64,000 nucleotides of DNA, from positions 16,182,001-16,246,000 of the forward strand of contig OX597820.1 of assembly GCA_951406725.2 (NCBI GenBank). Reading direction: 5' to 3'. The position numbers and the translations under genes are program-made. Source of the DNA: Octopus vulgaris. Its lineage: Eukaryota. A model generated the notes under the pieces. The model saw only the letters and a list, made by a program, of their open reading frames with translations. It was not told where the DNA came from and made no database searches. Below, piece after piece: positions 120-64,000 of this stretch; position 1 is the stretch's first letter, and every line of letters begins with the position of its first letter.

Positions 120-1399
120 CGAGGGACGTTCAATAAGTAATGCCCCTGCAGTTGTTTGATCTAGCTAAAATTTTGCATGTACAATTATTTATATCTCTAT
201 AGATTAAGTGGCAAATTACAGCTCTGAGCTAATTGTGGTTTCTGATTTACAGGTGTTTGAACTGAGTCAAGTGTGAAATGGAGCCTGTTGAGTGTCGAGC
301 AGTGATCCGGTTTTTGTATTTGAAAGGACGCACACCACGGGAGACTTTTGATGAAATGAAAGTAACTTATGGTGATAATGCCCCATCATATGACCTTGTA
401 AAACGCTGGTATCGGGAATTCAAACATCGTCGGAACTCTGTGGAAACAGCTCCCAGATTTGGTCGCCCCCTTCTGCCATTGATGAGGCAGCTGTCCGTCA
501 AGTTGAGGCTGCCATTTTAGAAGATCGACGCAAAACTATTCGCCAAATAGCCCATGAGGTCAAGATTAGTACCGGGTCTGTGGAAACTATCATTCATGAC
601 CATTTGCATATGCAAAAGGTGTCTGCCAGATGGATTCCCAGGTTGCTCACACCTTTCCAGAAGCAAGAACGCGTCGAGCGCTCGAGGATGAATTTGGAGA
701 TGTGCCAAGAAGATGAGTCAAAACTTTTCAAAAGAGTGATTACACAGGATGAAACATGGGTCCATCACTATGATCCAGAGACCAAAGCCCAGTCAATGCA
801 GTGTAAGCACCGTGACTCACCTCCTCCAAAGAAGGCAAGAGTGCAGCCCTCCGCTGGCAAGGTCATGCTCACAGTCTTCTGGGACCAGGACGGAGTAGTG
901 ATGACAGATTTCCTGACAAAGGGTACCACAATTACTGGAGCCTATTATGCTTCACCTTTGAGGAAATTAAGAGAAGCTATCAAAATCAAGAGGCGGGGCA
1001 AGATCAGCAAAAGCATCCTCCTCCTGCAGGACAACGCTCCGGTCCACAACTCGCGTGTCGCCAGATCAGAAGCACAGGCGTGCGGCTATGAACTCCTCCC
1101 CCATCCCCCCTACTGTCCTGACCTTGCACCTTCTTATTTTCACCTCTTCCCAGCCATGAAGTTGTTTTTGAAAGGAAAGCGTTTCCCAGATGATGCAGCC
1201 TTGATTTCTGAAGTCACGTCGTGGTTGGAGGACCAAGCTGTGGTCTTCTACAAAAACGGTCTCCAGAGCTGCATCAAACGATGGGAGAAATGCGTAACTC
1301 TGGGTGGTTCGTATGTAGAAAGAGAAGCCAAGTGCCAAGTTTCGTTGATCTACTGCTATGGGAAGTGGGTCAGGGGCATTACTTATTGAACGCCCCTCG
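120..1399 (+). mobile_element. Full-length mariner (DD34D, irritans-like) DNA transposon, 1280 bp
   Basis: 29-bp TIRs cgagggacgttcaataagtaatgcccctg (120-148) and caggggcattacttattgaacgcccctcg (1371-1399), one mismatch; TA target duplication at 118-119 and 1400-1401. Confidence 0.97.
278..1389 (+). pseudogene. Mariner transposase, frameshifted, third catalytic Asp mutated
   Basis: ORFs 278-520 and 580-1389 join via a frameshift near 470; motifs WIPRLL, ITQDETW, LQDNAPVH, and YCPDLAPSY where the canonical motif is YSPDLAPxD. Confidence 0.93.
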
Positions 1400-3313: not shown

Positions 3314-3385
<72 letters not shown>

Positions 3386-3531
3386 GACAATGATAAATCT
3401 CAGAGCGAGTTATAAACAGTAGCGGCAACTCATCGTGACGTATATTTGCCATTTGAATATGGCTGGGGCTACAAACTACAGTAGCATCCACCCTTAGGGG
3501 TTAGCCATATTCAAATGGCAAATATACGTCA
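3386..3531. mobile_element. Inverted-plus-direct fragment of the retrozyme-like family
   Basis: ~29-bp inverted repeat gtgacgtatatttgccatttgaatatggct / agccatattcaaatggcaaatatacgtcac; ggggctacaaactacagtagc..ggttagccat matches 50459-50517. Confidence 0.7.
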
Positions 3532-3932
3532 CTATATATATATGTATTTATATAAATTTAAATTCAAAATGAGGGTGTATATAAATTTAAATTTAAAACG
3601 AAGACGTTTGAAAAATAACCGCAAGTGTAATAGGTAGAACTAGATACAGATTTGCCCTCGTGCAGACGTCTCCGTATATAGTTCTGCAAATTATATTTGT
3701 ATAGACGGTCACACTGAGGATCTACGGACAGATTGTGTAAGTAAAAATTACGTAATATGTTAATAGTGAAACATGTATGTGAATAATCTATATTTTGTAT
3801 CTGTTCATTTGTCTTGCTCGCTTACGTTCTGGCGTTTGCTAAATTTTTCTTGAGAACATTTCTTAGTGGTAAGGCCATGGCGGATCTACTTCTAGCATAA
3901 GGGTTGTCCACATACTGGTCATCCCTCTCATT

Positions 3933-4347: not shown

Positions 4348-4400
4348 TATATCTACTATATATATATCATATATATGTGCGTCGCTTTAAAAGTATATAC

Positions 4401-4650
4401 TGTGAGCAAGAGCGAGTGGCTGTCATCTCTAGCCGGCGATTGTCCTGTACCGGCGAAAGAAATTACCCAGAAACCATTGGTGTACAGGTATCGCTACGGC
4501 TAGTAAGGGAGCAGTGGACTCCCTTGCTTACAGCTTGCGGACACATATCACGTGTCGGTAACCAGCTGGAAAAGATGTTTTCCTGGGGCTAAAAAGTAGT
4601 AACACTGTCCTACGTAGGACTGCCACGTTGCGTTGGCAAATAAACTTCAC
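4401..4650 (+). ncRNA. Highly structured retrozyme-like element with degenerate hammerhead
   Basis: Long hairpin 4430-4502 capped by cctgta-CCGGCGA..GAAA-cca t tgg-TG-tacagg; then hairpins aagggag/ctccctt, gacac/gtgtc, gaaaa/ttttc and ggggcta..agtaacac, in the same order as in 50302-50480. Confidence 0.7.
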
Positions 4651-4657
4651 TATATAT

Positions 4658-19444: not shown

Positions 19445-20345
19445 ACTTTGAGTTCTGAGTTCAAATGCTGCCGGGGTCGACTTTGCCTTTCATCTTTTCG
19501 GGGTTGAATACTGGGGTCGGTGTAATCTACTTTAAGGAGGCGAGCTGGCAGATTCTTTAGCGCGCCGAACAAAATGCTTAGCTGCATTTCGTCCGTCTTT
19601 ACGTTCTGAGTTCAAATTGCGCCGAGGTCGACTTTGCCTTTCATCTTTTCAGGGTCGATTAAATTAGTACCAGTTGAGTACTGGGGTAGATGTAATCGAT
19701 TTACACCCTCCTCCGAACTTGCTGGCCTTGTGCCAAAATTTGAAATCATTATTTAATTTGACCTTAAAGCGGCGATCTGGCAGAATCGTTAGCACGCTGG
19801 ATGAAATGCTTAACGGTATTTCGTCTGCCGCTACGTCCTGAGTTCAAATTCCGCCGAGGTCGACTTTGCCTTTCATCCTTTCGGGGTCGATAAATTAAGT
19901 ACCAGTTACGCACTGGGGTCGATGTAATCGTCTTAATCCGTTTGTCTGTCCTTGTTTGTCCCCTCTGTGTTTAGCCCCTTGTGGGTAGTAAAGAAATAGG
20001 TATTTCGTCTGCCGCTACGTTCTGAGTTCAAATTCCGCCGAGGTCGACTTTGCCTTTCACCCTTTCGGGGTCGATAAATTGAGTACCAGTTGCGTACTGG
20101 GGTCGATGTAGTCGAATTAATCCGTTTGTTTGTCCTTGTTTGTCCTCTCTGTGTTTAACCCCTTGTGGGTAGTAAAGAAATAGTAACATTTCGTCTGCCG
20201 CTACGTCCTGAGTTCAAATTCCACCAAGATCGACTGTGCCTTTCATCCTTTCGGAGTCGATAATTTAGGTACCAGTTGCGTACTGGGGTCGGTGTAATCG
20301 ACTAGTCCCCTCCCCACAAATTTCAGCCCTTTTGCCTCAAGTAGA
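19445..20345 (+). mobile_element. Family A SINE cluster with a ~180-bp tandem unit (3 units from 19770)
   Basis: Repeated tttcgtctgccgctacg..gtcgactttgcc..ccccttgtgggtagtaaagaaatag. Confidence 0.9.
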
Positions 20346-43699: not shown

Positions 43700-44830
43700 T
43701 TCTTTCTACTAAAAGCACAAGGTCTGAAATTTAGTGGAAGGGGCTAACCGATGACATCCATCCCAGTGCTTGACTGGTACTTTATTTTATCGACCCCAAA
43801 AGGATGAAAGTCAAAGTCGACCATGAATGAATTTGAACTCAGAACGTAAAGACGGATGAAATACTTATTTCTTTACTATCCAAAAGGGGCTAAACACAGA
43901 GGGGACAAACAGGGGCAGACAAAGGATTAAGTCGATTACATCGACCCCAGTGCGTAACTGGTACTTAATTTATCGGCCCCGAAAAGATTCCGACCTCGGC
44001 GGAATTTGAACTCAGAATGTAACGGCAGACGAAATACCTATTTCTTTACTACCCACATGGGGCTAAACACAGAGAGGACAAACAAGGACAGACAAACGGA
44101 TTAAGTCAATTATAACGACCCCAGTGTGTAACTGGTACTTATTTAATCGACCCCCGAAAGGATGAAAGGCCAGTCGACCTCGGCGGAATTTGAACTCAGA
44201 ATGTAACGGCAGACGAAATACCTATTTCTTTACTACCCACTAGGAGTTAAACACAGAGAGGACAAACAAGGACAGACAAACGGATTAAGTCAATTATAAC
44301 AACCCCAGTGTGTAACTGGTACTTATTTAATCGACCTTCGAAAGGATGAAAGGCAAAGTCGACCTCGGCGGAATTTGAACTCAGAACGTAACGGCAGACG
44401 AAATACTTATTTCTTTACTACCCACAAGGGGCTAAACACAGAGAGGACAAACAAGGACAGACAAACGGATTAAGTCAATTATAACGACCCCAGTGTGTAA
44501 CTGGTACTTATTTAATCGACCTCCGAAAGGATGAAAGGCAAAGTCGACCTCGGCGGAATTTGAACTCAGAACGTAACGGCAGACGAAATACTTATTTCTT
44601 TACTACCCACAAGGGGCTAAACACAGAGAGGACAAACAAGGACAGACAAACGGATTAAGTCAATTATAACGACCCCAGTGTGTAACTGGTACTTATTTAA
44701 TCGACCCCGAAAGGATGAAAGGCAAAGTCGACCTCGGCGGGATTTGAACTCAGAACGTAACGACAGACGAAATACCGCCAAGCATTTCGTCCTGCGTGCT
44801 AACAGTTCAGCTAGCTAGTTCGCCGCCTTG
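43700..44830 (-). repeat. Tandem array of about six ~180-bp units derived from the family A SINE
   Basis: gacctcggcgg..gaactcagaa recurs at ~43993, 44177, 44361, 44546, 44730. Confidence 0.93.
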
Positions 44831-49520: not shown

Positions 49521-49774
49521 ATTTGCTCTTTTCTTTTTTGTTTTTCTCTGCTGGAATTAAGGCGTCAGTAACGTCTACAGATTAAGCGGAGTAAAAGCAG
49601 GAAGAAGAACTCATTCCACAACTACCTTCATTAGAAAACACACGAAAACAGCAACAAAACAACAACAAAACGAGCAGCAACAATAACAGCAACAGCAACA
49701 ATAATGACAATGGTAGCAATAATGAGGTATTTTAGCATCGAGAACACTAATATAAGCAGCAACAGCACCAGTGG

Positions 49775-50083
49775 TGGCTCAATGGTCCAGTGGTTAGGGC
49801 AGCGGACTCGTTGTCGTAAGAACGCGGTTTCGATTCCCAGAGTGTTTATTGAGCAAAAAATCTAAGCTCTACGAGGCTCCGGCGGGGGGAGGGTGGTGAA
49901 TTCCGCTGTACTCTTTCACCACAACTTTCTCTCGCTCTTTCTTCCGACTTCTACCACAAAGCAGAGGAACCATGGTGTAACCAACTATGGTGTGGTAAAA
50001 CTTTCAGACCCTAGTCTAGATTGCGAATCCTCTGTACCCTAGGATGGTTCAGCTCTCCACTCGTTAAAAAGCCACCGTTTACG
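49775..50083 (+). mobile_element. Family C-headed SINE variant, truncated by the adjacent element
   Basis: Matches 52912-53224. Confidence 0.85.
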
Positions 50084-50084
50084 G

Positions 50085-50577
50085 AAGTTTTTCTTATGGC
50101 GTCTGCCACTGATGTCGAAAAACGAACAGTAAGCATAATTAAATCTCAGAATGAGATTGAAACAGTAATCGCTCGATAATGTAAAGTATAGAAGCCATCT
50201 TATCACGGCTAACCACATGCTTACTGTTCGTTTTTCGACATCAGTGGCAGACGCCATTAGAAAAAACTTATATATGTTTGCAAAGAGGCCTTCACTTTCA
50301 TCGCGACCTGGTGGTTACCGCCCGTTGACGAGGGACAACAATCCCGAAACTAGTTCGAGCGTATCACTCAGGCTTGCGAGGAAGGGATGACCTCCCTTTG
50401 CAAATACTCCAAGGACACTGATATTGTGTCTAAAGCCAGCTAGAGACGAAGATCTCTTGGGGCTATAAAGCTACAGTAACACCCCCTCCCCAATGTGGTT
50501 AGCCATGATAAGATGGCTTCTATACTTTACATTATCGAGCGATTACTGTTTCAATCTCATTCTGAGATTTAATTATG

Positions 50578-50578
<1 letters not shown>
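50085..50578 (+). mobile_element. Retrozyme-like element: 358-nt circularly permuted monomer (50217-50574) plus an inverted junction-spanning fragment
   Basis: Reverse complement of 50085-50218 equals 50493-50578 joined to 50219-50269; hammerhead at 50302-50378. Confidence 0.75.
50302..50378 (+). ncRNA. Type I hammerhead in a long helix I (C3U variant)
   Basis: cgcgacctggtggttaccgcccg-TTGACGA-ggga caacaa tccc-GAAA-ctag-TT-cgagcgtatcactcaggcttgcg. Confidence 0.72.
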
Positions 50579-50626
<48 letters not shown>

Positions 50627-50629
<3 letters not shown>

Positions 50630-50806
50630 TATATAGAAGGAGCTTCTACAGGACTAGAACTGTTTCATTCAAGAGAAATCTTCAGGAAATTTCTCTTGAA
50701 ACAGTTCTAGTCCTGTAGAAGCTCCTTCTATATAATAAATTAATGTTACTCTGCTATGTATTGAGTACCTTATTTACTGTGGTTAACCCCGAATCAACCC
50801 GGGACC

Positions 50807-50807
<1 letters not shown>
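50627..50807. mobile_element. Inverted Penelope-like end with hammerhead (minus strand, 50644-50688); family of 2811-2955
   Basis: ttc-CTGAAGA-tttctcttgaat-GAAA-cagttctagtcctg-TA-gaa, followed by an inverted partial copy. Confidence 0.75.
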
Positions 50808-50869
<62 letters not shown>

Positions 50870-53817: not shown

Positions 53818-54447
53818 AGAAAATTGCACTACTAGGCACTGCACACATCCTACGCAGAACACTTTCCATACAATAACCATCAGAGCATCACAACAAATCA
53901 CAGCACATACCCAAGGCACACAGAGCTGCGCTCGGTAGTGAAGTGAAAGCACACTATAAAAATAAAACTACTGAATAATAATAATAATAATTCTTTCTAT
54001 TTAGGGCTATCGACCCCAGTTTTTAACTGCTACTTCATTTATCGACTCCGAAAGGATGAAAAGCAAAGTCGACCTCGGCGGAATTTGAACTCAGAACGTA
54101 ATGACGCACTTTGCCCTGTGTGCTAACCATTCTGCCAGCTCACCGCCTCAAAAATAGTTATAATAAAATTTCTTTTGTTAGCTACAGTGGCATAGATGAG
54201 AGAGACATCACAAGAACAAATGACAGGTATAGCAGTATGGTTAACAAACTCGCTTTGCAGCCACCTGTTTTGGAAATCAGTACTACTTGTGCTGCACCTT
54301 GGGCAAGTGTCTTCTACTATACCCCCAGGAAAACTAATGTCTTGTGAGTGAATTTGGTTGATGGAAACTGTGTGGAAGCCGTTGTACATATGTGTGCGTG
54401 CGTGCGAGTGTGTGTTTATGTGTTTGTGTGCGAGTGTGTATGTACAT

Positions 54448-55487
54448 GTTCGGCAAAAGGAACCGACAGTCGGACTATATTATGCCCCATAGAGGCCCTA
54501 AGCACATGAAAATTTCCGTGACCGTATAGCAATGTAATTCAAAATATAAACAATAACCCATAAAGTTTTTATAAAGTGTGCATGTGTATGCAGTTGCGCT
54601 GTTCGGCAAAAGGGACCCGACAGTCGAGGCTATATTATGCCCCATAGAGGCCTTACGCACTTTAAAATTTCTATGACCTCATATCAATGTAATTCAAAAT
54701 ATAAACAATAACCCATAAAGTTTTTATAAAGTGTGCATGTGTATGCAGTTGCGCTGTTCGGCAAAAGGGACCCGACAGTCGAGGCTATATTATGCCCCAT
54801 AGAGGCCTTACGCACTTTAAAATTTCTATGACCTCATATCAATGTAATTCAAAATATAAACAATAACCCATAAAGTTTTTATAAAGTGTGCATGTGTATG
54901 CAGTTGCGCTGTTCGGCAAAAGGGACCCGACAGTCGAGGCTATATTATGCCCCATAGAGGCCTTACGCACTTGAAAATTTCTATGACCTCATATCAATGT
55001 AATTCAAAATATAAACAATAACCCATAAAGTTTTTATAAAGTGTGCATGTGTATGCAGTTGCGCTGTTCGGCAAAAGGGACCCGACAGTCGAGGCTATAT
55101 TATGCCCCATAGAGGCCTTACGCACTTTAAAATTTCTATGACCTCATATCAATGTAATTCAAAATATAAACAATAACCCATAAAGTTTTTATAAAGTGTG
55201 CATGTGTATGCAGTTGCGCTGTTCGGCAAAAGGGACCCGACAGTCGAGGCTATATTATGCCCCATAGAGGCCTTACGCACTTTAAAATTTCTATGACCTC
55301 ATATCAATGTAATTCAAAATATAAACAATAACCCATAAAGTTTTTATAAAGTGTGCATGTGTATGCAGTTGCGCTGTTCGGCAAAAGGGACCCGACAGTC
55401 GGGGCTATATTATGCCCCATAGAGGCTTTACGCACTTTAAAATTTCTATGACTTCATATCAATGTAATTCAAGCCCATAAAGTTTTT
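54448..55487. repeat. 155-bp tandem satellite, ~6.7 copies
   Basis: gttcggcaaaagg starts at 54448, 54601, 54756, 54911, 55066, 55221, 55376. Confidence 0.97.
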
Positions 55488-62974: not shown

Positions 62975-63372
62975 CTAGCAGTATCGCCCGGCGTTTCTCG
63001 GGTTTGTAAGGGAAATAACTATATAAGCATTTTTAGTGATGTAAAGTATAATAGCCATCTCAATATGGCTAACCACAAAGGGGTGTGTGTTTTACTGTAG
63101 CTTTTTACGTTCTGAGATTTAATAATAAATTTTTAGAGACTTACTTCCCTTATATATGCCAAAAATGCATTAAAAATAGGAAAAATTGATGGTAACTTTT
63201 TTTTAAATCGTAGACTCATCGTAGACGCGCGCTAATAGCCAGACGGGCTCGATATGAATCACGACTATAAGATACCCGGTTTTGGTTAAACTGCACCGCA
63301 AAATGTGGGAGTAGTTAGGAATCTAAATCGTAGGAGACAGACAGCACACAACCTCTCTTTTATATATAAAGA
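62975..63372 (-). mobile_element. Complete non-autonomous Helitron, 398 bp
   Basis: Minus strand A|TCtttatatataaaa...cccgagaaacgccggg-cgatactg-CTAG|T: 5' TC, 3' hairpin plus CTAG, AT target, no TSD. Confidence 0.85.
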
Positions 63373-64000
63373 TTAGGGAAATCAGTTACCTACTAATAGT
63401 TTTTCAACACCACTGAGAATGAGAACATTTACAGACAGATGTTTCATAACTTACAGCTTTCTCCATTCAGATTACAAATTCACATTTCCACTTTTAATTT
63501 TTAGTTCACTTGGTTAAGTTACTAAATATCTAAATAGTATCCTCGAAAATCTGTTTTCAGTTGATGAAAGTGTCCAGTCAACACACACTTTTAAAAAAAA
63601 TACCTTTTAAAGCTGAACAGTAAAACATTTTAACATTTTCTAAAGGTTAACATGGGAGTTATCTAAATTCCAGCGATTAAGCTTGTTTCCTTGTTCGACT
63701 CCACCTATTTTTGATTGAAAAAAAACTGAAATAATTTTTTTAAAAAAGTAAATAAAACATGCAAATTTATAAATAATTCCAAAGGTTTGCGATAAGAATG
63801 ATCACAGAAACATCCACGTAAAACCACTCGAGAACTGGAAAAAGAACCGCCTACAACCACTTGCATGCGATCAGAAAATCAAAAGAGCTCGACAAATGGG
63901 TGACACACGATTTGAATGAAAATCAGAAAATGCGCAGATATGAAATTTGCTCGTCGCTTCATCTCCGTAACCAGATCGATCCATTTCTCGACCGTATTAT

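Follow-up and report, generated by a model that had tools for sequence, protein, structure and literature searches.

What kind of element leaves part of itself in reverse orientation ahead of a complete unit, and from which form of RNA was it copied? This question is raised by positions 50085 to 50578 of a 64,000-nucleotide stretch of the Octopus vulgaris genome (contig OX597820.1), hereafter called the window. An earlier note, made from the letters of the window alone, had read these positions as a permuted retrozyme-like unit of ~358 nt with a hammerhead ribozyme, copied from a circle or tandem multimer and probably mobilized by the reverse transcriptase (RT) of a Penelope-like element (PLE). 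Mussel (Mytilus) retrozymes, repeats of 350–390 bp, are presented as circRNAs in the sections of PMC7229834 available to us, and a July 2026 bioRxiv preprint (10.64898/2026.07.22.740005), as far as its accessible text goes, treats animal retrozymes as nonautonomous PLEs on the basis of a mainly vertebrate sample and without end analysis. The hallmarks of PLEs themselves include a tail, partial tandems, and inverted copies (excerpts of PMC8557442 and PMC3846280).

Results

We numbered the unit from 1 to 360, starting at 50219 on the forward arm (Table 1). The window copy runs from inverted 47 to 1, through inverted 360 to 275, into forward 1 to 360, and from there into a (TA)n tract. This is the B-A-B′-C-A′ layout that the earlier note had described: the reverse complement of 50088–50218 joins the end of the unit (50493–50578, 85/86 identical) to its start (50219–50265, 98%). 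The period of 358 nt is likewise borne out, as is the noncoding nature of the unit, whose longest ATG frame when circularized is 57 codons. Its length and its GC content of 44.4% lie within the range used for retrozymes (~150–450 nt, GC <45%). The copy is irregular in that its left arm stops at unit ~50 and not at the usual start site A (317), and it is without a target duplication.

Table 1. Parts of the window copy and the tract adjoining it, in positions of the window.
Feature	Position	Strand	Remarks
Inverted arm, outer piece	50085..50134	-	Unit 1 to ~50; 98% over 47 nt
Inverted arm, inner piece	50133..50218	-	Unit 275-360; 85/86 identical; head-to-tail with outer piece
Forward arm: complete unit (358 nt) and first 2 nt of another	50219..50578	+	Nonautonomous Penelope-like element (PLE)
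Type I hammerhead motif	50302..50379	+	Helix I interrupted by a UUAC/UA internal loop
Hammerhead sub-parts	Core UUGACGA 50325-50331; helix II 50332-50345; GAAA 50346-50349	+	
Palindrome	50348..50355	+	AACUAGUU; predicted cut after 50355
Four hairpins	50382-50398, 50413-50431, 50434-50464, 50502-50517	+	Kept across sister families
Start site A, unit 310-320, mostly 313-317	50528..50538	+	Tail-less 3′ end in many copies
43-nt PLE tail	50536..50578	+	Terminal hairpin 50556-50566; ends at start site B, unit 355-360
(TA)n tract	50579..50625	.	Adjoins the insertion end; preferred target

Other repeats share the window. A tRNA-like repeat of SINE type lies to the left of the element (49770–49950; ~40 matches among the loci examined), in which ARAGORN calls no tRNA, and tandem arrays with periods of 184–185 and 155 nt occupy 19815–20301, 43762–44776, and 54447–55472. 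The frames at 394–1386 (+) and 63770–64000 are presumably remnants of mariner-type transposases.

We searched the assembly (2.8 Gb, 227 contigs) for further copies of the unit. The best 40 of 2322 candidates are 96–100% identical to it, and exact patterns taken from the hammerhead core, unit 144–171, and unit 280–307 (a 28-mer) match 160, 403, and 701 times genome-wide. The first 100 of the 701 28-mer matches represent 66 insertions, which scales to at least ~460 insertions in the genome. For segments of at least 200 nt, identity to the window copy spans 91–98% between the 5th and 95th percentiles; the family is young, and its copies are scattered over many chromosomes. In all, 155 insertions were mapped, among which the 66 loci behind the first 100 listed 28-mer matches, all of them included, form an unbiased set; 10 overlapping loci, two members of a segmental triplicate, and six repeated identifiers were left out before counting. 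A metagenome scan for the unit returned 0 matches. None of the sequencing runs listed with the unit is recorded as RNA; the unit is mostly covered by three contig sets guessed to be RNA and by one run of unknown kind, from which expression, strand, and circles cannot be read. Matches to Rfam microRNAs proved to be simple-repeat noise. The literature searched holds no description of the 358-nt family, which may already stand in Dfam or Repbase.

The insertions bear the signature of PLEs: fixed 3′ ends, an optional tail, 5′ truncation, inverted arms with one tailed end, target duplications, and a bias to AT-rich and microsatellite targets, (TA)n among them. Across the 155 insertions, 3′ ends fall at two sites ~43 nt apart, A (unit 310–320) and B (355–360), and 5′ ends are spread over the unit. 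The unbiased set divides into 34 inverted and 32 direct insertions. All but one of the direct copies end at A or B (31/32; 22 at A and 9 at B), and both outer ends lie at a start site in 26 of the 34 inverted ones, every one of which pairs one A with one B. The same rule of one tailed and one tail-less end holds for 59/59 inverted insertions with both ends at start sites among the 71 inverted copies of the full set; in the other 12, of which the window copy is one, a single end is irregular. Target duplications, counted at ≥7 bp, accompany 23/27 inverted insertions outside (TA)n, with lengths of 12–15 bp in 21 cases, and 19/62 direct insertions, or 42/89 overall compared with 4.1 of 89 for shuffled flank pairs. 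Twenty-eight of the 66 unbiased insertions adjoin (TA)n. The 360-to-1 head-to-tail junction, which the earlier note had expected to recur in other copies, is crossed in 25 of the same 66.

The window contains further inserts. A diverged sister unit at 4385–4652 (+) ends at the equivalent of site A beside TA and has a degenerate hammerhead core; at 3379–3537, another sister family is represented by a short inverted stub, tailed at one end and tail-less at the other. The (TA)n tract of the window copy also borders a second PLE-type inverted insertion (50626–50810), which folds back around a CUGAAGA...GAAAC hammerhead-like motif, has one short and one tailed end, and recurs at L147, L209, L248, L319, and L425. 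An abundant repeat at 62990–63350 (896 candidates), with ends that we take to be Helitron-like, has amplified an old inverted stub of the unit superfamily (63039–63126).

Examination of the hammerhead modified one part of the earlier reading. The motif itself stands: Rfam Hammerhead_HH9 matches 50307–50377 with 31.2 bits (E 2.6e-6), a score below the gathering score of 52. The core, by contrast, is UUGACGA, with U3 facing G8, and not the CUGANGA of the usual consensus. The window copy has a 4-bp helix II and a GUU triplet ending at 50355; its helix III is a 2-bp palindrome within the monomer and extends to 8 bp between two tandem units. Among 65 parsed cores, 50 have U3-G8 and 15 have U3-A8. 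The U3-G8 form with GUU marks the dominant subfamily, the window copy included, whereas U3-A8 with GUC is found in the large sister family M2, in the close sister L379/L360, and in a linked subfamily of the 358-nt family; the distant sisters L321, L272, and L330 have C3-G8. A 31-nt pattern drawn from the sister core has 0 matches in the genome, and a near variant of it is present in L379 and L360. Because its copies are more alike (median identity 97.6% versus 95.7%), the U3-G8 subfamily is probably younger than the U3-A8 subfamily. Both a U3-G8 wobble and GUU slow hammerhead cleavage, and the ribozyme of the dominant subfamily is probably slow. The C3-G8 and U3-A8 pairs are known from active hammerheads (PMC3088659 and PMC4209133, in part), and a dimer mode is described in a section of PMC4209133. 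The full hammerhead fold is predicted only for two units in tandem, and for a natural stretch with two hammerheads, the predicted minimum-energy fold is the double hammerhead.

Marks of cleavage in the insertions were sought at two levels. Some 5′ ends do lie at the predicted cut (L325, L344, L048, L028), but the unbiased count of five events in three arms compares with 3.0 expected (p = 0.18), and linkage across the cut site (0.57) equals that within either side (0.58), which gives no indication of template jumps there. The fold-back of L316 (2540–2764), a 16-nt insert in L012 (1241–1281), and the 3′ end of L103 (1991–2030) coincide exactly with the predicted cut or with its palindrome; these single cases may record cleaved RNA.

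We met ~10 diverged relatives of the unit by chance in flanks and in the window, and the five that were measured are 63–67% identical to it. M2 has 2734 candidates and shows the same two ends, inverted arms, and self-tandem arrangement, with a period of 360. When 12 sister sequences were aligned, 83.6% of cells in 50 named pairs were paired, as against 28–46% in slid controls; the structure tested was drawn from the window copy, which favors that copy's structure. Both sides have changed in 22 of the 50 pairs, including 6/6 in proximal helix I and 4/4 in helix II. RNAalifold independently recovered the four downstream hairpins; on this gappy alignment, it did not recover the hammerhead helices. 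The hairpins noted earlier downstream of the hammerhead are therefore real and covarying, and they are likely the region recognized by the helper. The hammerhead, too, is retained in the family as a conserved fold, with U3-G8 as its dominant core.

These data also bear on the reading of the unit as a DNA-level repeat (a satellite, Helitron cargo, or a fold-back artifact) with a chance likeness to a hammerhead. The Rfam score below the cut-off and the old stub riding a Helitron-like repeat would fit such an origin, but it does not account for ragged 5′ ends together with fixed 3′ ends, for target duplications, for the spread of copies across many chromosomes, or for the covariation seen in every proximal helix I and helix II pair. 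On the end and covariation data, we consider this reading refuted, with almost no probability left to it.

We also examined the coding PLEs of the genome for a helper. Our sampling of them is partial, with 150 of 6136 GIY-YIG candidates scored. The genome contains young coding families with a 781-aa RT/GIY-YIG protein (in a two-frame element), a 784-aa protein, and a ~1100-aa protein, all of which bear the Cys linker motif that PMC8557442, in the part available, gives for Neptune and Nematis. Nine of nine inverted insertions examined of the 784-aa PLE obey the one-tailed-end rule. The terminal repeat of the 781-aa PLE carries a hammerhead (UUGAUAA...GAAAC-AU-GUU) of the variant type found in the sisters, with a U3 core and a 2-bp palindromic helix III. 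In the 781-, 784-, and ~1100-aa families and several older PLE families sampled, blastn and nhmmer detected no terminal repeat homologous to the unit, and for this reason we name no helper. Sampled ends of the three coding families lie almost all in (TA)n, compared with 28/66 for the unit, a difference in preference that suggests the helper may be another PLE family. No promoter of the 358-nt family was located.

Several features of the coding PLEs were observed alongside. Young intact elements at L184 (67–5283) and L412 (1936–5636) have an extra frame of 470–480 aa upstream of the RT-endonuclease frame, a single frame being the usual description of PLEs; the upstream frame of L184 gave no Pfam match at or above a family cut-off. 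The ~1100-aa PLE has a hammerhead-like motif (L263, ~1290–1325), best read as a CUGUUGA core with U at position 6 in 7/8 copies (L261–L268). In the 784-aa PLE (L413), a UUGAUAA...GCAAC-CG-GUA motif, with GCAA replacing GAAA, stands in the terminal repeat ~110 nt before the 3′ end.

The earlier note had named attachment of all copies to an RT-coding PLE as the mark of an ordinary terminal repeat. We found no RT/GIY-YIG frame linked to the unit in 110 loci or in 99 further stretches, and among the 110 loci, no upstream flank is shared save in one segmental triplicate. Two apparent coding copies were rejected: the PLE fragment just upstream of L055 is a degraded remnant of the ~1100-aa family, whose terminal repeat bears no relation to the unit, and the two arms of L380, 5.6 kb apart, are separate insertions with no match to the 781-aa protein. 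If the copies had no independent life and were the 5′-truncated terminal repeats of an autonomous PLE that escaped detection, their end features would be as observed, since all of these occur in coding PLEs, and such an element could lie outside the partial samples of the family and of PLEs. Arms that stay intact past unit 1, however, run into the unit's own position 360 (83 of 226 arms cross) and never into shared foreign sequence; the PLE protein matches in 10 flanks (7 + 3 loci) are separate neighbors unrelated to the unit; and M2 has the same self-tandem build. This reading is already largely refuted, and we hold it to be very unlikely.

We then compared variants within insertions for what they say about the template. 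Reading continues past the cut site in 95 of 98 anchors, and there is no excess of ends there, so the templates were uncut or religated. Discordant sites between the arms of one insertion are at 4.4% versus 27.5%, showing that arms usually share a haplotype, and tandem units do so as well (3% discordant); ~7 of 72 inverted insertions contain segment pairs that disagree at ≥2 subfamily sites. Passage round a monomeric circle predicts that a first and a second pass have private variants in common just as often as two first passes have. Sharing between two first units was seen in 16 of 61 insertions and between first and second units in 4 of 56 (p = 0.007). Where all three units overlap (26 insertions), five variants, in four insertions, occur in both first units and not in the second, one occurs in a first and the second unit, and none occurs in all. 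Variant sharing thus leans to a linear multi-unit RNA template, on few events; gene conversion between inverted arms could also produce this pattern. The earlier note had taken the head-to-tail junction as the sign of a circle or tandem multimer; our data do not support the circle on this ground: the unit ends are RT start sites typical of all PLEs and not an arbitrary permutation, and the variants lean the other way.

A classical retrozyme cycle, in which the dimeric hammerhead cuts tandem transcripts, the monomers are closed by ligation into circles of 358 nt, and the PLE enzyme copies round these from A and B, differs from the explanation we prefer in the template alone. Unit size, 44% GC, and a stable predicted circular fold (z -3.7) match mussel retrozymes, and a ligated circle would allow the observed passage through the cut site. 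The longest arm reaches 902 nt (2.5 units), and none of the mapped loci holds an array above 2.5 units, so something must regenerate length, which a circle would do neatly. Low discordance between tandem units, one rare variant common to all three tandem units of L048, and the presence of at least two whole tandem hammerheads in 10/189 insertions (3/66 in the unbiased set) also accord with it. Against it stand the rare variants confined to the two first units and the dominant U3-G8 core with GUU. We judge this cycle possible but doubtful as the source of most insertions.

Discussion

The unit family is a nonautonomous PLE of the non-LTR-retrozyme type that works like a minimal PLE. In each feature open to our tests, it agrees with the description of non-LTR retrozymes in PMC7229834, save for its noncanonical hammerhead core. 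PLE-like ends, junctions, and a conserved hammerhead fold uphold the earlier proposal of a retrozyme-type family mobilized by PLE machinery. As the most convincing explanation, and one in which we place considerable confidence, we propose a young noncoding 358-nt repeat copied in trans by a PLE RT-endonuclease, probably of Neptune type. A transcript of more than one unit would be bound through its conserved 3′ hairpins, and the enzyme would make a 12–15-nt staggered cut in AT-rich DNA. One nick would prime reverse transcription at site B (unit 360), and the second nick would prime it at site A (unit 317). Each cDNA would end at a random point, and a head-to-head junction between the two would produce the inverted layout; use of a single start site would give a direct copy. 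In most cases, the enzyme would copy through an uncleaved hammerhead. Release and circularization of monomers from tandem copies may occur as well, as in mussel retrozymes, with linear multi-unit RNA the more likely template of most insertions.

The lean to linear transcripts of tandem source copies agrees with PMC11167929, in the part available of which the tail occupies the interval from one RT start site to the other and insertion in vitro does not require hammerhead cleavage. With Neptune-clade endonuclease PLEs, as portrayed in excerpts of PMC8557442, PMC3846280, and PMC11167929, the family shares a pair of start sites separated by the tail, partial tandem copies, an inverted 5′ copy, target duplications, a bias to AT and (TA)n, and a hammerhead upstream of the ends; it differs in having no ORF, in a tail of 43 nt compared with the 30–40 reported, and in duplications of 12–15 bp compared with 8–10 in rotifer examples. 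Its likeness to animal non-LTR retrozymes, so far as the accessible parts of PMC7229834 and 10.64898/2026.07.22.740005 describe them, lies in a noncoding 150–450-nt unit with GC <45%, a type I hammerhead with a short palindromic helix III, head-to-tail units, and a proposed PLE helper. Unlike these, it forms mostly truncated or 1–2-unit dispersed insertions and not long arrays, has the U3-G8/GUU core, and has no homologous helper repeat among those found. The same parts of both sources contain no retrozyme report of the tail, the one-A-one-B rule, or target duplications. The Chlamys PLEs MRC1 and Chlamys-N4 are likewise noncoding PLE parasites with head-to-tail insertions and 5′ truncation, but they are algal, belong to an N-terminal-endonuclease clade without canonical hammerheads, and generally resemble their helper at the 3′ end (PMC8557442 and PMC9977147, in excerpt).

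A bolder reading, which we offer tentatively and consider rather unlikely, is that the family is one of an old radiation of some 10 or more ~360-nt structured RNA parasites of PLEs, recognized by fold and not by sequence likeness to any helper, with both start sites used at opposite nicks in each insertion and with the youngest subfamily, also the most successful, having exchanged a compensated hammerhead core for a weaker one. If so, animal retrozymes would spread as uncut multi-unit RNA, with the circle as a side product.

That retrozymes ride on PLEs has so far been argued from co-occurrence and terminal-repeat similarity; here, the insertion footprints are unusually clear and themselves match those of PLEs, in a young family of hundreds of copies. 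With the start sites of this 358-nt substrate mapped, and with young PLE genes still intact in the genome that carries it, three questions can be tested: which RNA shape a PLE enzyme recognizes, how the one-tailed inverted structure arises, and whether the template is a circle or a linear multimer.
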